In this document: positions 4,053 through 63,535 of the stretch, piece after piece
Numbering within the stretch: position 1 is the first letter of the stretch
Layout: each line of letters opens with the position of its first letter
DNA from: an uncultured Candidatus Saccharibacteria bacterium
GTDB taxonomy: Bacteria > Patescibacteriota > Minisyncoccia > Phycocordibacterales > UBA9973
Direction: 5' to 3'
DNA: 64,000 bases
Assembly: GCA_964522195.1 (NCBI GenBank)
Contig: CAZFSV010000003.1
Location: 29,575 to 93,574, forward strand
Translations under genes and position numbers: made by a program
Notes under the pieces: model-generated
What the model was told of the DNA's origin: nothing
Databases searched by the model: none
Seen by the model: only the letters and a program-made list of their open reading frames with translations

Positions 4053-4427
4053 ATGAAAAATTTATTTATTAAAAATTTGCAAAAATATTTCTTGATTTTT
4101 ACTTTCTTGCTTTTACCTTTAGTTTCTTTAGCTGATGGTACTCAGCCAAGTGGAGGAACCACAACCCTAAAAAATCCTTTAGAATATGAAACCATAAATG
4201 AATTTCTTAAAGCCATAGTTGAAGGTGTACTTAAATTAGGTATTCCTATTATTGTGCTTGCTATTATTTATTCTGGATTTTTATTTGTGACTGCTTTAGG
4301 TAATCCAACTAAATTAGAGAAAGCAAAAGAAGCCTTTCTTTATACAGTTATAGGCGCAGCTATTCTTCTGGGGTCTTGGGGCCTTGCTCAATTAATATCA
4401 GAAACAATTATTCAAATTAGTAAATAA
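4053..4427 (+). CDS. small secreted two-TM protein, VirB2/TrbC-pilin-like (subfamily A paralog)
   Basis: Same topology and motif as 3669..4028 (IYSGFLFVTALGNPTKLEKAKEAFLYTVIG). Confidence 0.45.
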   Translation: MKNLFIKNLQKYFLIFTFLLLPLVSLADGTQPSGGTTTLKNPLEYETINEFLKAIVEGVLKLGIPIIVLAIIYSGFLFVTALGNPTKLEKAKEAFLYTVIGAAILLGSWGLAQLISETIIQISK

Positions 4428-4442
4428 TTATATATAAAAAAT

Positions 4443-4901
4443 ATGAAAAACCTTAAATACAAATTTATAAATCTAGCTTTTATTCTTTTGTTTAGTGTTA
4501 TGCCTTTGATGTCTTTCGCTCAATTAGGTACTGATCTAGGGGCTGATGATAATGTTGATTATTATAATGGTAATACCTCACCTTCCTCATCTTCTTCTAG
4601 TAATTTGAGTTGCTCTGTTGGTCAAGAACCTACAATAGCTAGTATTTTTGATTATATGCTTTGTATTATAAACCGATCTATAATTCCTTTAATATTCGGC
4701 TTAGCTACTTTATTATTCATTTGGGGTGTAGTTAAATTTGTATTAAATACAGATAATGAAAGTGAAAGAGAAAAAGGTAAGGAATTCATGATTTGGGGAA
4801 TTATAGCTCTTACAGTCATGATAACTGTTTGGGGAATTGTAAATTTGCTTGGTAGTAGTTTTGGCTTAGATACAAAATATATACCATCCGTAAAACCTTA
4901 A
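4443..4901 (+). CDS. small secreted two-TM protein, VirB2/TrbC-pilin-like (subfamily B)
   Basis: Signal peptide, a variable Ser-rich N-region and a conserved C-terminal module IIPLIFG...WGVVKF..N.DNESEREKGKEFMIWGIIALTVMITVWGIVN. Bases 4758..4840 are identical to 5158..5240. Confidence 0.45.
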   Translation: MKNLKYKFINLAFILLFSVMPLMSFAQLGTDLGADDNVDYYNGNTSPSSSSSSNLSCSVGQEPTIASIFDYMLCIINRSIIPLIFGLATLLFIWGVVKFVLNTDNESEREKGKEFMIWGIIALTVMITVWGIVNLLGSSFGLDTKYIPSVKP

Positions 4902-4905
4902 TTGT

Positions 4906-5301
4906 ATGAAAAATTTTAAATATAAATTTTTAAATGTTTTATTTATAGCCTTACTTTTGTTTACTGATAATATTGCTTTTGCTCAAAATTCTAATAACTC
5001 TTGTTCTGTTTCTAAAGCAGGAGCAAAAACAACTTTTAAGAGTTTATTAGAATATTTTACTTGTATTATTAATTCCTCTATTATTCCTTTTTTATTTGCT
5101 ATTGCTATTATTGCTTTTCTGTGGGGTGTAGTCCAGTTTTTCTTAAATGGAGAGAACGAAAGTGAAAGAGAAAAAGGTAAGGAATTCATGATTTGGGGAA
5201 TTATAGCTCTTACAGTCATGATAACTGTTTGGGGAATTGTGGCTATTGTGGGAGGAAGTTTTGGCTTTGAGGTTGATGTTATTCCACAGGTGGGTCTATA
5301 A
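4906..5301 (+). CDS. small secreted two-TM protein, VirB2/TrbC-pilin-like (subfamily B paralog)
   Basis: Shares an 83-nt perfect identity with the previous gene across the C-terminal TM module. Confidence 0.45.
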   Translation: MKNFKYKFLNVLFIALLLFTDNIAFAQNSNNSCSVSKAGAKTTFKSLLEYFTCIINSSIIPFLFAIAIIAFLWGVVQFFLNGENESEREKGKEFMIWGIIALTVMITVWGIVAIVGGSFGFEVDVIPQVGL

Positions 5302-5442
5302 ATTGCTTTATTTTAAATAACCCTATGATATAATTTAATTAACCTAGTATTTAGGAAATAGAAAAGGTCGATATTCAAAAATAAATAAAATTAAAAATTA
5401 TCAGTTAATTTCTTTAAAAAGAAATAAATTTAAATAAAAAAT

Positions 5443-5880
5443 ATGAAGAAAAAATTAATTAGTTTAGGTTTAGTAACAAGTTTAGTTTTAATGTTTGCAA
5501 TGTTTGCTTTACCAGTTGCTACTACTTTTGCGCAAGCACAACAAAATGTTGAAGGAGATTGTGCTTCTATAAATGAAGCTAACCCTTTGCAAGTTTTCTT
5601 GTGTAGAATTGCATTGCTTCTAAACTCAGCAATACCTGTTATGATTACTCTTGCTGTAGTTTACTTTATTTGGGGTGTTATTACTTATGTTATTGCTGAA
5701 GAAGAAGAAGCTAAAACAAAAGGTAGAGATAAAATGATTTGGGGTATTATAGGACTTGCTGTTATCGTTTCTGTTTGGGGTCTTGTGAATTTCTTGAAAG
5801 GTTTCGTTGGAATCGGAGATTCTAATGTTGTTAATATTCCTTGTATTCCAGGTCCAGGTATTACTTGTCCACAACAATAA
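5443..5880 (+). CDS. small secreted two-TM protein, subfamily B paralog
   Basis: Signal peptide plus the ...KGRDKMIWGIIGLAVIVSVWGLVNFL module. Confidence 0.4.
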   Translation: MKKKLISLGLVTSLVLMFAMFALPVATTFAQAQQNVEGDCASINEANPLQVFLCRIALLLNSAIPVMITLAVVYFIWGVITYVIAEEEEAKTKGRDKMIWGIIGLAVIVSVWGLVNFLKGFVGIGDSNVVNIPCIPGPGITCPQQ

Positions 5881-6318: not shown

Positions 6319-6929
6319 TAATAATAAACAATTTCCACCGCTGTTGTGTTATCGTTTATTTTTTCAAAAATGTACTTATTTGTACCAAATTTTTTAGGGT
6401 AGTAATTATCTACCCCGGGGCAATCTTCCTTTGGTTGTTCTCCGGGAGCTGTATATAATACACAGCCACCTTTTGGATAAAATTTGAATGGTGGAGTAAG
6501 GTCTTTTTCAATAATCTTACTATTACCAAAATACAAATACTCACTCCGAGGTCTTTGTGAAATATTTTGATTATTAGTTTTTGTTGTGTCATTTTTCAAA
6601 GAATTTTTAATATCATTTCCTTTGAAATAGATTATTAAAAAAAAGAAACAACTAAGATATAAAGCCCAAGCATAGTCCCATTTCCAAATGTATTGGAACA
6701 GAGAAAGAATTACCATAAAAATCAACACAAACCATAATTCCCACATTTTCTCTGGTCCAATTATGTAATACAGCAAACCAAACCAAAATGTGTTCCACAT
6801 CATGGCCGAAAAAAGCATTTGGATATCGTATTTTTTTACTCCACCTGTATTTAAATTTTGATTTTTTAAAAAAGCAAAATAAATAATTACAAGTAGTACA
6901 AGAATACTTATTCCTAAAAAAATTTCCAT
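6318..6929 (-). CDS. hypothetical polytopic membrane protein
   Basis: Several TM helices followed by a Cys-containing soluble tail. It sits downstream of the SPFH gene, so it could be an NfeD-like partner. Confidence 0.3.
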   Translation of the reverse strand: MEIFLGISILVLLVIIYFAFLKNQNLNTGGVKKYDIQMLFSAMMWNTFWFGLLYYIIGPEKMWELWFVLIFMVILSLFQYIWKWDYAWALYLSCFFFLIIYFKGNDIKNSLKNDTTKTNNQNISQRPRSEYLYFGNSKIIEKDLTPPFKFYPKGGCVLYTAPGEQPKEDCPGVDNYYPKKFGTNKYIFEKINDNTTAVEIVYY

Positions 6930-9068: not shown

Positions 9069-9167
9069 CAAAATATTAAATATTTTTAGGTATGCGCCCA
9101 TAGCTGTTTTGGTAGGTCGTTAGATAAATAGTAAAATAAAAGTTTAATTTAAAAATAAATATAATAT

Positions 9168-9240
9168 GCGCCCATAGCTCAGCTGGTAGAGCAGATCCCT
9201 CTTAAGGATAAGGTCCAAGGTTCGATCCCTTGTGGGCGCA
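9168..9240 (+). tRNA. tRNA-Lys (anticodon CTT)
   Basis: Acceptor GCGCCCA/TGGGCGC, D-arm TAGCTCAGCTGGTAGAGC, anticodon loop CTCTTAA, T-arm CAAGGTTCGATCCCTTG. Confidence 0.8.
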
Positions 9241-9345
9241 CAAAGCATGTTATGCTTTGTGCGAATAGCAGGCACGATTGATGCCGAGACGGGGTAGCGA
9301 GATTTTTCAGCAGAAAAATACTTGTGACTACAAAGTAATTATATA
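9241..9345 (+). repeat. tRNA-adjacent mini-element, copy 1 (after tRNA-Lys)
   Basis: A hairpin overlaps the tRNA 3' end (cgcacaaagcat-gtt-atgctttgtgcg). It is followed by atagcaggca...gccgagacggggtagcgagatttttcagcagaaaaatacttgtgac, which is about 80% identical to 9556..9605. Confidence 0.4.
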
Positions 9346-9363
9346 TGTTAGTATATAAATTTT

Positions 9364-9445
9364 GGGTAAGTGGCGGAATTGGTATACGCGCTGGTCTTAG
9401 GAACCAGTGCCGCAAGGCTTGAGGGTTCGAGTCCCTCCTTACCCA
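9364..9445 (+). tRNA. tRNA-Leu (anticodon TAG)
   Basis: Acceptor GGGTAAG/CTTACCC, anticodon stem CTGGT/ACCAG with loop CTTAGGA, long variable arm. Confidence 0.85.
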
Positions 9446-9449
9446 CAAA

Positions 9450-9627
9450 AATTCACAAAAGACAGCTAAATGCTGTCTTTTGTGTTATTTTTTTGTGTGG
9501 TAAAGGAGAGGCGAGAAAGACGGAGGCGGTATACAAGAGGAGCACAGCGAGTGCTTGTGGCCGAGTCGGGGTCGCGAAAATTTTCTTTAGAAAATTATTT
9601 GTGACCGAGTCCCTCCTTACCCACAAA
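9450..9627 (+). repeat. tRNA-adjacent mini-element, copy 2, ending in a 22-nt exact direct repeat of the tRNA-Leu(TAG) 3' end
   Basis: cgagtccctccttacccacaaa occurs at 9428..9449 (inside the tRNA) and again at 9606..9627. The internal motif gccgagtcggggtcgcgaaaattttctttagaaaattatttgtgac is shared with copies 1 and 3. Terminator hairpins lie on both sides. Confidence 0.55.
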
Positions 9628-9669
9628 TTTTAAAAAACAGTGATTTTTATCACTGTTTTTTAAATAATG

Positions 9670-12137: not shown

Positions 12138-13355
12138 ATGAATAATAAAAAAAATAACCCAAAAAGAATAGTTTATTTAGATAATGCTTCAGCGACAAAG
12201 CTAGATAAAAATGTTTTAAATAAAATATTTTCTGTATTTAAAAAAGATTATGTAAATCCTAGCGCTTTATATGATTTAGGACTGGATTTAAATATTCAAA
12301 TTAAAGAAATTAAAAAACATATTTTAAATTTGTTTAAAAGTGAAATAGGGGAAATTATTTTTACAAGCGGAGCTACTGAGTCTAACAATTTAGCAATTTT
12401 AGGTTTTTTGAATGCTTTACCAAAAAAGAAAAATTTTTTACCTCATATTATTATTTCTAATATAGAACATTCATCAATTTTAGAGCTTTGTAAGAAATTA
12501 GAAAATGATAAAAAAATAGAACTAACTTTATTGCCAGTAGAAGAAAATGGAATTTTAAATTCTAATCTTTTAAGAAAAAATTTAAAAGAAAATACTGTTT
12601 TAGTTTCTGTGATGTATGTTAATAATGAAATAGGCACAATTCAACCTTTAAAAGAAATTACAAAAGAAATTAGACATTACAGGAAACATAATGAAACAAT
12701 TTTTCCAATTCTTCATAGTGATATAACTCAAGCTTTAAATTATTTAGAAATAAATTTTGGAACCTTGGGTATAGATATGGCTTCTTTTAATAGCGCTAAA
12801 ATTTATGGACCAAAAGGAATAGGGATTTTGTATAAAAGAAAAAATTTAAAATTAAACCCTATAATAATAGGAGGCAATCAAGAGAGTGGTTTAAGAGCCG
12901 GAACAGAGAATTTCCCTTTAATAATTGGTTTATATGAATCAGTGCTTGCAACTTTAAAAATTAGAGACAAAGAAGTAAAAAGACTTGTTCCTTTACAGAA
13001 ATATTTTATACAAAAATTAAAAAAAGTTTTTGAAAAATATAAAATTAAATTTACTCTAAATGGAGATTTAGAAAAAAGAATTCCAAATAATATAAATATT
13101 ACTATTTCAAATATTCCTAGTGATCTTATTTTAATAGAATTAGCTAATTATGGAATTTATATTTCAGAGAAAAGTGCTTGCAAATCCGGTGAAAAGAAAA
13201 ATTCTTATGTTATTGAAGCTTTAAATAAAGACACCAATTCTACGTTTAATAGTTTGCGTTTTTCTTTAGGTAGAGAGACAACAAAAGAGGATTTAAATTA
13301 TGTTATATCTATTTTAGATAAAGTTTTAAAAAAGCTTCATAAATGGTATAATTAG
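12138..13355 (+). CDS. cysteine desulfurase / class V aminotransferase
   Basis: N-terminus IVYLDNASATK, PLP fold and a conserved SACKSG region. Confidence 0.7.
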   Translation: MNNKKNNPKRIVYLDNASATKLDKNVLNKIFSVFKKDYVNPSALYDLGLDLNIQIKEIKKHILNLFKSEIGEIIFTSGATESNNLAILGFLNALPKKKNFLPHIIISNIEHSSILELCKKLENDKKIELTLLPVEENGILNSNLLRKNLKENTVLVSVMYVNNEIGTIQPLKEITKEIRHYRKHNETIFPILHSDITQALNYLEINFGTLGIDMASFNSAKIYGPKGIGILYKRKNLKLNPIIIGGNQESGLRAGTENFPLIIGLYESVLATLKIRDKEVKRLVPLQKYFIQKLKKVFEKYKIKFTLNGDLEKRIPNNINITISNIPSDLILIELANYGIYISEKSACKSGEKKNSYVIEALNKDTNSTFNSLRFSLGRETTKEDLNYVISILDKVLKKLHKWYN

Positions 13356-16919: not shown

Positions 16920-16921
16920 AT

Positions 16922-16955
16922 TAAAAAATCCCTCACACAACATGAGGGATTTTTT
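16922..16955. terminator. bidirectional terminator (clpB / tRNA-Tyr)
   Basis: aaaaaatccctca-cacaaca-tgagggatttttt. Confidence 0.6.
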
Positions 16956-16960
16956 AATTG

Positions 16961-39592: not shown

Positions 39593-41047
39593 ATGGCGAA
39601 ACCAAATCGAGTTCAAATAATTAAATACGGTCCACCACCACCAGAGCTTCCAGTTTATGGCAAGGTAAAACCTGAAGAGGTTTCTTTTATTGGGCGGACT
39701 AATTACGTCGCTTCTCTCGAAGAGAAGAAATTTATTTTCGGTTTCAAGAGAGTCGACCGTCGTCGTCACTTGTATATTATAGGTAAGTCTGGAGTAGGTA
39801 AGACTAAACTTCTCGAACTTTTCTTGCGCCAAGATATCACTTATGGTCACGGACTTTGTCTTATCGATCCTCATGGAGACGTGATAGATTCTATGCTCGA
39901 TTATATTCCAAAAGAACGTATTGAAGACGTTTGTATTATCGATCCGTCTGACGTGAATTTCCCAGCCTCTTTCAATCCTCTAGCGAACGTCGACCCTATG
40001 TTTAAATTTCAATTGACTCAAGGTTTGATTGAAGTTTTTCAAAAGCAATTCGGTGCTAACTGGACTCCTCGTCTCGAGCACGTTTTTCGTTTTACATGTC
40101 TGGCACTACTGGACTATCCGTATGCGACCATGCGCGGAATGATATCTATGCTTACTGATAGAAATTATCGTCAGAAAGTAGTGGAATATATTCAAGACGA
40201 TATGGTCAAAAGATTCTTCGCTATTGAATTCGCGGACTGGTCTGAGAAATTCGATACTGATGCTATTATCCCGCTCGTGAATAAACTCGGTCAATTCTTG
40301 TCTGACCCTTTGCTCCGCAATATCTTCGGTCAGAAAGAAAATAAAATAGATATTAGTACTTTGATGAATGAGCAGAAAATTATTTTGATAAATCTTTCTA
40401 AAGGTAAAATCGGTGAAGAGAATTCTTCTTTCTTTGGATCTATGTTTTTGACCAAGATTAAACAAGCTGGTATGGAACGCGCGCATATCTTAGAGAAAGA
40501 TCGTAAAGATTTTTATATTTATGTCGACGAGTTCCAAAACGTCGTGACTCAAACTTTCGAAAATATTCTATCGGAGGCTCGTAAATATGGATTGAACTTA
40601 ACCATGGCTCACCAATACGTCGGGCAGATTCAACCGAAAATCTATCAATCCATTCTCGGTAACGTTGGATCAATTATTTCTTTCCGTGTGGGAGGAGAAG
40701 ACGCGACTCGTTTGAAACCAGAATTCGACCCGCTTTTCGGAGTCAAAGATATGATCAACCTTGCTGTGGGAGAATTTTATATCAAGATGACTATCGACGG
40801 GGAGAGTTATGACCCTTTCTCAGCAGAGACTCTACGAGTATTACCTCCGACTCATACCTCCTACAGAGAAGAAATCATGGCAGCTTCACGTCGCAAATAT
40901 GCTATCTCAAAAGGTGACGCTCAGAGATTGATCCAAGAAGAGGAGTCTACTATAATTCGTAGTGCTGAAGAAAAAGCTGCGATAAAAGGTGCCGGCAGAA
41001 CAGAAGAAGGAGATAGAAAAGAAACGGAATCTGAACCTATGATATAA
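39593..41047 (+). CDS. TraD/VirD4 (type IV coupling protein)-like AAA ATPase, no TM segments
   Basis: Walker A IIGKSGVGKT, LCLIDPHGD...CIIDPSD..FNPL, Walker B IYVDEFQNV and LTMAHQ. Confidence 0.5.
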   Translation: MAKPNRVQIIKYGPPPPELPVYGKVKPEEVSFIGRTNYVASLEEKKFIFGFKRVDRRRHLYIIGKSGVGKTKLLELFLRQDITYGHGLCLIDPHGDVIDSMLDYIPKERIEDVCIIDPSDVNFPASFNPLANVDPMFKFQLTQGLIEVFQKQFGANWTPRLEHVFRFTCLALLDYPYATMRGMISMLTDRNYRQKVVEYIQDDMVKRFFAIEFADWSEKFDTDAIIPLVNKLGQFLSDPLLRNIFGQKENKIDISTLMNEQKIILINLSKGKIGEENSSFFGSMFLTKIKQAGMERAHILEKDRKDFYIYVDEFQNVVTQTFENILSEARKYGLNLTMAHQYVGQIQPKIYQSILGNVGSIISFRVGGEDATRLKPEFDPLFGVKDMINLAVGEFYIKMTIDGESYDPFSAETLRVLPPTHTSYREEIMAASRRKYAISKGDAQRLIQEEESTIIRSAEEKAAIKGAGRTEEGDRKETESEPMI

Positions 41048-47174: not shown

Positions 47175-47245
47175 GGGCGATTAGTTTAGTGGTAGAACAA
47201 CGGTCTCCAAAACCGTTGGCGGGAGTTCGATTCTCTCATCGCCCG
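47175..47245 (+). tRNA. tRNA-Trp (anticodon CCA)
   Basis: Acceptor GGGCGAT/ATCGCCC, anticodon stem ACGGT/ACCGT with loop CTCCAAA, T-arm GGGAGTTCGATTCTCTC. A terminator hairpin follows at 47252..47279. Confidence 0.8.
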
Positions 47246-47280
47246 CAAAAAAAGAACAGCGAAAGCTGTTTTTTTTGTTG

Positions 47281-47428
47281 GGCGATAGCAGGCAAACTAC
47301 TTTGCCTGTGTGAGGAATCGAAAGGCGGAACTATATTTTTTGAGCACAAAAAATAAGTGAGCCAGGGTTGTGAAAATTTTCAAGCGACGGCGAGAAAATT
47401 ATTCCTGACCGGTCTCTCATCGCCCGCA
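47281..47428 (+). repeat. tRNA-adjacent mini-element, copy 3, ending in a 16-nt exact direct repeat of the tRNA-Trp 3' end
   Basis: It starts gggcgatagcaggca (the tRNA 5' end plus the atagcaggca motif). It contains gaaaattttc...gcgacggcgagaaaattattcctgacc. tctctcatcgcccgca occurs at 47232..47247 and again at 47413..47428. Confidence 0.55.
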
Positions 47429-62824: not shown

Positions 62825-63287
62825 ATTTAAAATAATTTTATCAGAAAAAGTCTTTTAAATCAAAGAGGCCCTGAACTTAAGTCCAGGGCCATTTTTATGT
62901 ATTTTACTTGTAAGTTCAGGCTTGGCCTGTTGCAAAAGTTAAAATACTTCTTTTTATTTAATTTGGGATGAGCAAATTATTTTTATAAAATTTTTTATAA
63001 AATTTCTCCTTTCAAAAATTAAGATTATTTTCATTAATAAACTTAAGCCATTTTTTAATTTATGAGAAATTTATTCTCCTTTTTTGGCTTGTAAATTAAG
63101 CTTTATCTTATTTTTTCCATTTAAAATGGTATAAAATAATAATATAAATAATAATCCACCTTCTCCCTGTAAAGAACTGTATATCTCTTATACTATAGCA
63201 TTTTTATAAAATAAAGTCAAGTGCTTAATTAAAATAAATAAATTCAATACAAAAAAGACTTAATTTAAATTAAGTCTTTTTTGTATG

Positions 63288-63369
63288 TGCCGGAGGAGAG
63301 AATCGAACTCTCACACCTTGCGATACACGATTTTGAGTCGTGCGCGTCTACCAATTCCGCCACTCCGGC
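63288..63369 (-). tRNA. tRNA-Leu (anticodon CAA)
   Basis: Reverse complement GCCGGAGTGGCGGAATTGGTAGACGCGCACGACTCAAAATCGTG...GAGAGTTCGATTCTCTCCTCCGGCA. Confidence 0.8.
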
Positions 63370-63535
63370 TATTTGCAAAATATACTTTGTATTTTGCATT
63401 TTGTAAACAAAACCATAGCCGGAGTGTCGGCCTCCTTAGGATGAAAATCAAAGCAGTTTGATTTTCATCCACTCCGGCTATTATTTTTCTTTTCCACATT
63501 TTAACTTTATCAGAAATTTATGCTAAAATCAATTT

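Follow-up and report, generated by a model that had tools for sequence, protein, structure and literature searches.

Three tRNA genes, for tRNA-Lys, tRNA-Leu(tag) and tRNA-Trp, are each followed by a short insert of related sequence in the 64-kb stretch of DNA analysed here (the window), and the question raised by this locus is what such inserts are and how they come to lie at the ends of tRNA genes. The sequence-only reading had described them as small, non-coding and non-autonomous, with the tRNA 3' end repeated directly on either side, and as either products of site-specific integration or conserved arm-site remnants. The descriptive part of this reading is upheld: the inserts are 100-180 nt in size and contain no ORF, and a covariance model scan of the 64 kb found exactly three copies, one at each of the three tRNA genes (9261-9329, 9515-9606 and 47320-47410). 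No promoters were found in a scan of the elements.

The portable unit is a core of 62-66 nt, which consists of a purine-rich junction (J) and two hairpins. Hairpin P2 comprises a stem of 3 bp, an internal loop of the form G-GA/GA (tandem G-A) and a variable tip; hairpin P3 is A/U-rich and comprises 16 bp, and it contains a single bulged A besides its conserved G-U pairs. The core is closed by a further stem, P1, and the whole forms a three-way junction. 'Closed' copies carry P1 as a hairpin of their own; in 'open' copies, to which all three copies in the window belong, P1 is formed by an antisense (X') and a sense (tail) copy of the neighbouring gene end. The order at a tRNA 3' end is the tRNA ending in X (from T-loop C56 through its 3' terminus), a spacer hairpin, X', the core, and X again, so that the insert is flanked by a direct repeat of the last 19-22 nt (approximately) of the tRNA and the gene remains unbroken. 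The parts of the three copies are as follows (coordinates in the window, strand, feature).

9168..9241, +, tRNA-Lys(ctt), host of copy 1
9237..9263, +, hairpin in which the tRNA-Lys 3' end and trailer (CGCACAAAGCAT) pair with the antisense arm X' (ATGCTTTGTGCG)
9261..9329, +, core of copy 1, with J GCGA, P2, and P3 at 9292-9328 (52.8 bits)
9329..9335, +, tail of copy 1, TACAAAG, short and in sense orientation, copied from the tRNA end/trailer CACAAAG
9364..9446, +, tRNA-Leu(tag), host of copy 2
9428-9449, +, first repeat unit of copy 2, T-loop C56 to the tRNA-Leu 3' end plus CAAA
9454..9496, +, terminator-like hairpin of 13 bp with T run, separating tRNA-Leu from copy 2
9494..9514, +, antisense arm X' of copy 2 (TGTGTGGTAAAGGAGAGGCGA), complementary to both the tRNA-Leu 3' end and the tail
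9514..9606, +, core of copy 2, with J GAAA, P2a GAC/GTC, a long P2b, and P3 at 9569-9605 (66.2 bits)
9606..9627, +, tail of copy 2, exact 22-nt direct repeat of 9428-9449 and 3' strand of P1
47175..47246, +, tRNA-Trp, host of copy 3, with the first repeat unit at 47232-47247
47255..47279, +, hairpin ACAGC GAAA GCTGT with T run, 3' of tRNA-Trp
47280..47319, +, antisense arm X' of copy 3 in two pieces, GGGCGAT (47280-47286) and GTGAGGAATC (47310-47319)
47320..47410, +, core of copy 3, with J GAAA, P2a GGC/GCC, and P3 at 47365-47409 (42 bits)
47410..47428, +, tail of copy 3 (CGGTCTCTCATCGCCCGCA), the last 16 nt of which (47413-47428) are an exact repeat of 47232-47247

The exact duplicates of the tRNA end that had been reported for the Leu and Trp copies (22 nt and 16 nt, respectively) are real; no such long duplicate exists at the Lys copy, where merely the 7-nt tail TACAAAG resembles CACAAAG. 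This tail pairs with X' and closes P1. The terminator hairpin that had been attributed to each copy corresponds, at the Leu and Trp copies, to a terminator-like hairpin with a T run; the hairpin at tRNA-Lys (9237-9263) is complementary at 12/12 positions with a loop of 3 nt, and has no T run. The proposed right-end motif (GAAAATTTTC...GAAAATTATT..TGAC) was recovered as two exact pattern matches, compared to none in 100 shuffled sequences. The proposed left-end motif, atagcaggca, lies at non-homologous places in the Lys copy (in P2) and in the Trp copy (in an inserted hairpin) and is missing from the Leu copy; it is probably coincidental. The copies also differ in detail: the P2a stem of copy 1 is imperfect, and in copy 3 the arm X' is interrupted by the inserted hairpin, which has an ACTAC loop (47287-47309), and the tip of P3 is extended (CGACGG). 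Every insert also contains the tRNA 3' end in antisense orientation, which had been overlooked. This antisense arm is central to the anatomy of the element.

The fold of the core is borne out by covariation. In an alignment of 26 gapless cores, 99% of the cells are paired, and several pair types occur in P2a and P2b; among 91 model matches, 96% of the cells are paired and double-sided changes are found in 21 of the 23 pairs, and no shuffle equalled the observed values. Fold z-scores for single sequences range from -4.8 to -5.3. The P1 arms, i.e. the flanking inverted repeats, change from site to site with the target from which they are copied, and the interior is conserved. The mean pairing energy of X' is -19.7 kcal/mol with the real tRNA end and -13.1 kcal/mol with the tail (shuffled, -11.8 kcal/mol); X' thus prefers the real tRNA end, and therefore a P1 built with the tail is often weak. 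On its left side the repeat begins at T-loop C56 in every case, the length of the direct repeat varies from 7 to 27 or more nt across sites, and the insertion point is always directly 5' of a C. Most closed copies are preceded by GTG or TAG, which is in part native tRNA sequence. Tails are often truncated, and decayed tails and tandem arrays of elements occur.

A pattern scan of the GTDB representative genomes for the family yielded at least 120 loci, which is a lower bound, nearly all of them in metagenome-assembled genomes (MAGs) of Patescibacteria; the covariance model gave 130 matches in 100 loci. The element is a repeat family specific to Patescibacteria, mostly Paceibacteria, and no copies were found in the viral contigs, phages and plasmids searched. 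An assembly artefact, a concern raised with the initial description, is ruled out: the architecture occurs in more than 100 unrelated MAG contigs, and the Trp region has the same sequence in two independent assemblies (by exact-protein look-up, in which close-strain matches represent identical sequence only). Searches against Rfam 15 at gathering and permissive thresholds returned tRNAs only, and searches with local regions returned nothing relevant up to E 10. Literature searches returned no description of the element, the nearest returns being papers on group I introns in Patescibacteria tRNA genes and on TIGR-Tas systems. The structured-repeat family is apparently undescribed, as had been supposed.

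The placement of the copies demonstrates that the core is portable. One core subtype (36 members, at least 93% identity) is found at at least 15 tRNA isoacceptors, and also beside the 5' ends of tRNAs and at sites unrelated to tRNAs; its arms are specific for each site. All 95 of the 95 tRNA-adjacent copies point in the same direction as the tRNA, and only about 10% of tRNA flanks are occupied in an unbiased sample. Some copies are intergenic and far from any tRNA gene, and closed copies split partial tRNA copies (in the D-loop, at position 26/27, or in the T-loop), with an intact tRNA copy alongside. Furthermore, variant cores are inserted in frame into a cysteine desulfurase gene with the ORF intact (loci L172, L173, L177 and L202); these inserts are flanked by perfect inverted repeats of 18-26 bp and occur in either orientation, and the insertion site measures 33 to 62 aa, varying among relatives.

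The element is gained and lost at orthologous sites: a given tRNA site is empty in some relatives and occupied in others, with clean boundaries. In 80 loci that have the infB-linked tRNA cluster in common, the spacer from tRNA-Lys to tRNA-Leu(tag) is just 2-3 nt long in eight and contains the hairpin alone in many others; one or two family-1 cores are present in approximately 14 loci, and an unlike core of the same architecture in five. At the 3' end of tRNA-Leu(tag), the tRNA of an empty site (e.g. L133) directly joins the promoter ACTTGACATTTATTT, and occupied sites (L177, L156, L170 and L188) carry the insert and a repeat of 19-20 nt (C56 to CAC), followed by the promoter ACTTGACATTTATTT. 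The tRNA-Lys hairpin (of the 9237-9263 type) is also kept in loci L185 and L067, and in L150 it is present without the core. The tRNA-Lys hairpin and element are nearly identical between genomes whose IF-2 proteins are only about 64% identical, which suggests purifying selection or recent transfer.

The explanation that we favour, and hold with confidence and doubt in about equal measure, is a non-autonomous, mobile structured repeat whose arms are taken from its target. The element is most likely selfish rather than useful, and its core would spread without an enzyme of its own; the strand-specific fold would reflect the requirement of a single-stranded intermediate, most likely RNA or ssDNA, and installation would proceed via a short arm identical to the target. 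One possible route is that a small circle in the shape of a dumbbell, made up of X, hairpin, X' and core, recombines in the Campbell manner; an equivalent one is copy-choice or fold-back synthesis that starts from the terminator hairpin and switches into the core of a donor, either through the T-loop sequence, which is universal (TCGAA / CGA[AT]TCC), or through the CACAAA trailer, which is common. By either route, the tRNA end would be regenerated automatically. A bolder version appears unlikely, namely a self-retargeting mobile RNA or ssDNA, in which the three-way-junction core builds its closing stem from antisense and sense copies of the adjoining gene end as a template-directed insertion that is independent of proteins, or uses host enzymes only, and leaves the target undamaged; alternatively or in addition, the element would be a domesticated switch that gates the folding and maturation of the adjacent tRNA.

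Against the favoured explanation, a constraint at the RNA level is indicated by the co-orientation of all tRNA-adjacent copies, as against both orientations in the protein gene, and by the conserved G-U pairs; it would fit a functional cis-acting RNA as well. The near-identity of the Lys hairpin and element between genomes with divergent IF-2 and the often weak P1 also count against it. The main rival to a mobile repeat is a cis-acting RNA module on tRNA precursors, a switch or a processing device, which we consider improbable. Here, X' would have two alternative partners: bound to the real tRNA end, it would sequester the acceptor and the 3' strand of the T-arm, and bound to the decoy copy, it would close P1. 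A protein or ligand that stabilizes the core would release the tRNA for folding and for 3'/5' maturation; the two folds would be mutually exclusive since the nucleotides of the junction can pair with the tRNA as well. The strong covariation is typical of functional RNA, as are the G-U pairs, and the Lys hairpin and element are conserved in distant genomes. The three-strand logic (gene end, antisense, module, decoy) is mirrored at tRNA 5' ends and recurs with unrelated cores, and the full transcript of tRNA-Leu and element is predicted to fold as the alternative isomer. However, a terminator-like hairpin with T run lies ahead of two of the three copies, so that these would be transcribed by read-through only; occupancy is patchy at orthologous sites; copies lie in decaying tRNA fragments, in distant intergenic DNA and in either orientation in a protein gene; and the truncated tails leave P1 weak.

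Three further rivals were considered. A tRNA-targeting integrase acting in trans, with the elements as miniature integrative elements or deletion derivatives of islands and the repeat as regenerated att core, agrees with the clean direct repeats, which span the T-loop to the tRNA 3' end in the manner of classical tRNA att sites, with their constant left edge at C56 and with the existence of empty and occupied alleles; in six of the 120 loci listed, a gene for a large serine recombinase occurs at a distance of no more than 8 kb, one of them abutting the element at a tRNA-Asp (L002). Nevertheless, we judge it quite improbable, and site-specific integration into tRNA genes, as originally proposed, is unsupported: a single site-specific integrase cannot explain at least 15 tRNA 'att' sequences for one core subtype together with tRNA 5' ends, D- and T-loops, intergenic sites, a protein gene and repeats as short as CACAAAG. 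No integrase, transposase or reverse transcriptase was found among the approximately 50 ORFs of the window and no recurrent recombinase beside the elements among the 120 loci listed, and clustering of 1,234 neighbouring ORFs from these 120 loci gave no recurrent partner protein. Serine recombinases are not known to make identity blocks of 16-27 nt. The conserved part is a covarying fold and not a set of arm-type repeats for protein binding, which also speaks against arm-site remnants of decayed islands, and the antisense arm would have no role. A non-autonomous relative of IS200/IS605 or REP (PATE/REP-like) elements, i.e. folded ssDNA moved by an HUH (Y1) transposase or a RAYT whose gene lies elsewhere, is very doubtful. 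It would account for strand-specific hairpins that tolerate G-T pairs, for insertion directly 5' of C, for the size and copy number, and for GTG or TAG before most closed copies, which recall the REP GT[AG]G head and a short target tetranucleotide; on the other hand, IS200/IS605 insertion yields no target copies, direct or inverted, the antisense and sense arms are not accounted for, and a looser bias, following replication direction, would be expected in place of strict co-orientation. A phmmer search for an IS200-like TnpA gave no match in 5,286 ORFs from 1.47 Mb of sampled Patescibacteria DNA, which is a weak test given the query sequence used. The last of these rivals, a guide RNA for a TnpB, IscB, IS110 or TIGR-Tas-like nuclease or transposase, is highly improbable. 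RNA-guided TIGR-Tas systems are known in CPR bacteria (PMC12045711). A conserved scaffold followed by a variable tail of 16-22 nt that matches the 3' end of the tRNA gene, together with the internal antisense segment, resembles such a guide; against this, no effector gene lies beside any copy among the 120 loci listed, Rfam gave no match to omega-RNA or kin, there is no constant TAM 5' of the matched tRNA segment (GGTT versus GGCG), closed copies have no guide, and tails are often truncated.

As a mobile repeat, the element shares with Rickettsia palindromic elements (RPE) and with REP/BIME, Correia, ERIC and BOX elements the short length (60-150 nt), non-coding nature, multiple copies, stable stem-loops and presence or absence at orthologous sites, and with RPE, in behaviour only, the in-frame location in a protein gene and the location in or beside RNA genes. 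It differs from RPE/REP-type repeats in host phylum, with no sequence kinship seen, in its conserved interior between flanks copied from the target, in its strict link to and co-orientation with tRNA ends, and in a direct repeat by which the 3' end of the tRNA is regenerated. MITEs are likewise small, non-coding, multi-copy and polymorphic for insertion; this identity was rejected on the ends, since the P1 arms differ per site and there is no target-site duplication of fixed length, and the plan is reversed, with conservation in the interior and inverted repeats on the flanks that are copied from the target at each site. CIMEs (att-flanked and devoid of recombination genes) and tRNA-targeting integrative elements are similar in their insertion at tRNA 3' ends, direct repeat from T-loop to 3' end, restored tRNA and non-autonomous state, but they are kilobases in size, whereas the element described here measures about 100-160 nt and has dozens of tRNA targets, as well as 5' ends and non-tRNA sites, for one conserved core, and an internal antisense copy of the target. 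Integron attC sites and CTX-type elements (IMEX), which undergo recombination in the form of folded single strands, offer a mechanistic analogy only, in that a strand-specific fold would present a duplex copy of the target (here P1, X:X'); the element lacks attC R/L boxes and any dif-like sequence, and its targets are many tRNA ends. A short segment in direct-inverted-direct order with junctions at hairpins is a signature of fold-back/template-switch synthesis, and tandem inversion duplications and quasi-palindrome template switching have reportedly been studied by the Roth and Lovett laboratories in Salmonella and E. coli. The element has this arrangement, with junctions at hairpins; unlike tandem inversion duplications, its second junction is always with a conserved structured core, and it recurs over many sites and genomes rather than being a single rearrangement.

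Several other identities were rejected. A hammerhead ribozyme, with its CUGANGA, GAAA and UH core at a three-way junction, does not fit the junction strands (NNRA, G/A-G and 0 nt) or the G at what would be the H17 position, and there is no Rfam match (consensus inspected); the junction sequences are also unfit for hairpin and other ribozyme cores. A tRNA-like minihelix mimic was discarded since many P1 use only the last nucleotides and trailer (CACAAAG) and since the antisense character of the 5' arm extends into the T-loop part. Spliced introns (group I, archaeal-type) were rejected because of junctions without terminal G and of interrupted tRNA copies that are decaying with an intact copy alongside, and DGR-like mutagenesis because of differences between repeat copies that are not adenine-specific. 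One locus (L010) contains a true group I intron (PMC13011429); it is a separate feature.

The element accounts for duplicated tRNA ends and partial tRNA fragments, which confuse the annotation of tRNAs and islands in CPR MAGs; the covariance model is now usable for annotating the elements, and an in-frame insertion hotspot is flagged in a conserved enzyme, cysteine desulfurase. The genomes of Patescibacteria are tiny and streamlined, yet they contain many copies of a structured repeat at their tRNA genes. If selfish, the repeat would represent a new type of miniature mobile element, conserved inside and with its ends copied from the target, and the mechanistic question would be how direct and inverted copies of the target are made and the tRNA is spared; a functional repeat, in contrast, would act as an RNA device on tRNA maturation.

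ARAGORN and Rfam searches placed seven tRNAs in the window, and a covariance model of the element found exactly three copies in its 64 kb, beside three of these genes.

tRNA genes (ARAGORN, Rfam) and element cores (covariance model) in the window
9168-9241, + strand: tRNA-Lys(ctt)
9261-9329: core of copy 1 (Lys)
9364-9446, + strand: tRNA-Leu(tag)
9515-9606: core of copy 2 (Leu)
47175-47246, + strand: tRNA-Trp
47320-47410: core of copy 3 (Trp)

The sequence-only reading had announced three like copies. All three were recovered by the model, and the exact duplicates of the tRNA-Leu(tag) end (22 nt; 9428-9449 = 9606-9627) and of the tRNA-Trp end (16 nt; 47232-47247 = 47413-47428) were confirmed, but the Lys copy ends in a tail of merely 7 nt (TACAAAG), like the tRNA end plus trailer. 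The right-end motif also stood (2 exact pattern matches versus 0 in 100 shuffles). The left-end motif 'atagcaggca', thought to be common to all, is found in the Lys and Trp copies at places that are not homologous, probably by chance, and the hairpin ahead of the Lys copy lacks the T run of the terminator claimed for every copy. An assembly artefact was excluded because two independent public assemblies agree at every base of the Trp region and the architecture was found again in >100 unrelated contigs.

The constant core was defined by alignment of 131 pattern matches. It begins with a 4-nt junction NNRA (GAAA, GCGA, GGAA, others), followed by the 3-bp stem P2a (G-N-C/G-N'-C), an internal loop (G-GA/GA), and the variable hairpin P2b, frequently with a C(GACG)G closure; one or two purines then lead to P3. 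This A/U-rich hairpin of 16 bp (GGUCGCGARAWUUUUC-loop-GAAAAWUAYUNNUGACC) has a single bulged A, and two of its G-U pairs are conserved. The fold is backed by covariation: in 26 gapless cores 99% of cells pair, with at least three pair types each in P2a and P2b, and in 91 model matches from many loci, aligned by a fit to the model that favours the structure, 96% of cells are paired and both sides change in 21 of the 23 pairs, values approached by no shuffle and no slid register. Single-sequence folds gave z-scores of -4.8 and -5.3.

A third stem, P1, closes the core and is open in all three window copies: its 5' strand (X') is antisense to the upstream tRNA 3' end (X), and its 3' strand is the tail that had been noticed as a direct repeat. 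This gives the order tRNA ... X, spacer hairpin, X', core, X. Junction nucleotides extend the complementarity to the real tRNA, GAA with the T-loop TTC, and GCG, GGA or CCG with the last acceptor bases. The pairing energy of X' averages -19.7 kcal/mol with the real tRNA end versus -13.1 with the tail and -11.8 when shuffled; in the predicted fold of the whole tRNA-Leu and element transcript, X would pair with X' and the tRNA 5' strand with the tail. The direct-inverted-direct arrangement is general; relative to the intact tRNA, the module lies in the distal gap, at either gene end. Several copies carry a 14-nt module (CGAAAGTGTACTCA) between the core end and the tRNA-derived tail (loci L012, L020, L062, L080, L092 and L100 from other genomes), and some tails of this set run straight into a new X'-GAAAG core start, giving tandem arrays.

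A pattern scan of one genome per species found at least 120 loci; nearly all of the matches listed are Patescibacteria MAGs (Paceibacterota, Nomurabacteria, Zambryskibacteria and others, some labelled Saccharibacteria), and one short 'Polaromonas' contig among them is probably contamination. The element was absent from the 2.9 million viral contigs and from the phage and plasmid records searched. The covariance model found 130 copies in 100 loci: 73 follow a same-strand tRNA that ends at most 160 nt away (fifteen isotypes), 22 precede the start of a same-strand tRNA, 35 are without a nearby tRNA, and none has an opposite-strand tRNA alone. One single-linkage cluster (>=93% identity) unites 36 cores, which are found beside 15 or more isoacceptors as well as at tRNA 5' ends and non-tRNA sites, and the arms of each match its own neighbour; a portable core is combined with local arms. 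Locus L059 (1400-3100 and 6700-6900) holds seven diverged closed copies, in which P1 is the element's own hairpin, within 8 kb. These copies lie away from tRNAs, bordering rpsT and other genes, and have covarying P3 bases (CCCAG.../...CUGGG). L059 and L043 also have a distinct palindromic repeat, GACGACACAAAATATAGTCG, in common.

Orthologous sites, anchored on IF-2, are polymorphic for the element. Among 80 metagenome loci with the common cluster tRNA-Cys, Leu(taa), Lys(ctt), Leu(tag), the Lys-to-Leu(tag) spacer measures 2-3 nt in eight and is a simple hairpin in many others; it contains one or two cores of the family described here (family 1) in about 14, and in five a different core with the same architecture ('family 2': X'-GAAAGG-AU-rich hairpin-CACCUGGCUAUGUAAUAGCC-X, with X a 19-21 nt repeat of the tRNA 3' end). 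Family 2 cores lie in this spacer or at the Leu(tag) 3' end in L125, L156, L170, L188 and L197-L199. Empty tRNA-Leu(tag) 3' sites lead from the tRNA directly into the promoter (ACTTGACATTTATTT...); at occupied sites the insert and a 19-20 nt repeat (T-loop C56 to CAC) intervene, and the promoter continues as in empty sites. The comparison of empty and occupied sites proposed from the sequence alone was thereby borne out in related genomes, at both spacer and 3' end.

Closed copies also interrupt partial tRNA copies, in the D-loop, at position 26/27 or in the T-loop; the broken tRNA copy is decaying, and an intact tRNA adjoins. Variant cores lie in frame within the cysteine desulfurase gene, ~1 kb upstream of infB, bracketed by perfect 18-26 bp inverted repeats. 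Across L123-L202, cores are recognisable in L172 and L202 (antisense), L177 (sense) and L173, with apparent partial remnants elsewhere (e.g. L149). The MYANNE-to-HTDA distance ranges from 33 to 62 residues among these relatives, and the site is therefore a hotspot of insertion and decay; the window gene (12138-13355) is in the short state (34 residues).

Part of the tRNA-Lys 5' end is repeated, without a core, 74 nt ahead of the genuine gene (9091-9115 versus 9165-9189; 15 exact nt, TATGCGCCCATAGCT; 25 nt with 84% identity), and this copy may be what is left of a 5'-type insertion. The direct-inverted-direct logic recurs without a family-1 core at 63418-63478 (-), upstream of tRNA-Leu(caa) (63287-63369).

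Features upstream of tRNA-Leu(caa)
63469-63478, - strand: copy of the tRNA 5' end, GCCGGAGTGG
63441-63468, - strand: hairpin with AACUGCUU loop
63418-63426, - strand: antisense copy of the tRNA 5' end, CACTCCGGC, then the tRNA

CUGC-tetraloop hairpins, apparently a second portable module, are present in 24 of 72 spacers from other loci. tRNA-Tyr and tRNA-Leu(caa) are followed by terminators (16920-16960 and 63245-63287) in the form of perfect 17-19 bp palindromes (A-tract, hairpin, T-tract) that start right where the tRNA ends; this genome seems to have many such long, perfect palindromes at the ends of its genes. In locus L010 (6368-6693), tRNA-Asn carries a ~270-nt insertion in its anticodon loop, consistent with a group I intron at position 35/36, as described for Patescibacteria tRNA genes (PMC13011429). 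Downstream (6820-6871), its 3' end is repeated (CCTACCCCCGGAGC) after a different motif, GGTATACTGCCCCTGTAAGGGGAGATAA, also present in L033.

The ~50 window ORFs are housekeeping genes, and clustering of 1234 ORFs from the 120 loci listed yielded no partner protein; the window ORFs included no integrase, and none recurred beside these loci. Large serine recombinase genes (Resolvase + Recombinase + Zn_ribbon_recom) lie at most 8 kb from an element in six of the 120 loci listed (L002, 4580-6347; L036, L075, L108, L112, L117); the L002 gene ends 29 nt from an element at a tRNA-Asp whose 3' half is atypical. A 224-aa HTH protein occurs in nine loci, in four of them ~500 nt or less from tRNA and element. 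Four tandem T4SS/TrbC-type pilin-like genes and a TrwB/VirD4-like coupling protein (window 4053-5880 and 39593-41047) stand out in this Patescibacteria window of otherwise housekeeping genes and 29% G+C.

We give about even odds to the element being a structured repeat that is selfish and non-autonomous. Its behaviour is like that of Rickettsia palindromic elements (RPEs), REPs and MITEs; unusually, its conserved part is internal and its flanking inverted repeats are copies of the target. The integrated 3'-end form would result if a small circle shaped like a dumbbell (X, hairpin, X', core) underwent a Campbell-type crossover with a tRNA end. Fold-back synthesis at the terminator hairpin, with a switch to a donor core and back via the universal T-loop sequence or the shared CACAAA trailer, could give the identical form; either route would spare the tRNA and produce the direct-inverted-direct pattern.

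The main rival, a cis-acting RNA device in which X' sequesters the tRNA end or a decoy copy captures X' as the core folds, appears improbable, with perhaps one chance in a handful. Strict co-orientation with tRNAs (though the protein-gene copies make inversion between the arms clearly possible), conserved G-U pairs, the mirrored logic at tRNA 5' ends and a Lys hairpin and element near-identical between genomes with IF-2 only ~64% identical speak for it; terminator-like hairpins ahead of two of the three window copies, patchy occupancy, copies in pseudogene fragments and within a coding sequence, and often truncated tails speak against. The sequence-only reading's site-specific integration is unlikely: it accounts for the clean repeat, but not for the many targets, the antisense arm or the lack of an integrase among the window ORFs. 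Slightly less likely still is a PATE/REP mobilised by an HUH transposase; a crude search of 1.47 Mb found no IS200-type TnpA. A guide RNA is highly improbable.

Literature searches found no description of the element; related recent work included the group I introns cited, one apparently visible in L010, and a TIGR-Tas paper (PMC12045711). No Rfam family matches it. The element shows neither the conserved TIRs and fixed TSD of a MITE nor the integrase and single att of an att remnant, and fails the defining tests of known ribozymes and guide RNAs; its behaviour is that of RPE-like repeats. We therefore rate it as a small structured bacterial repeat with an unusual target-copying anatomy, of real interest for the mobile-element, RNA-structure and CPR genome-annotation fields.
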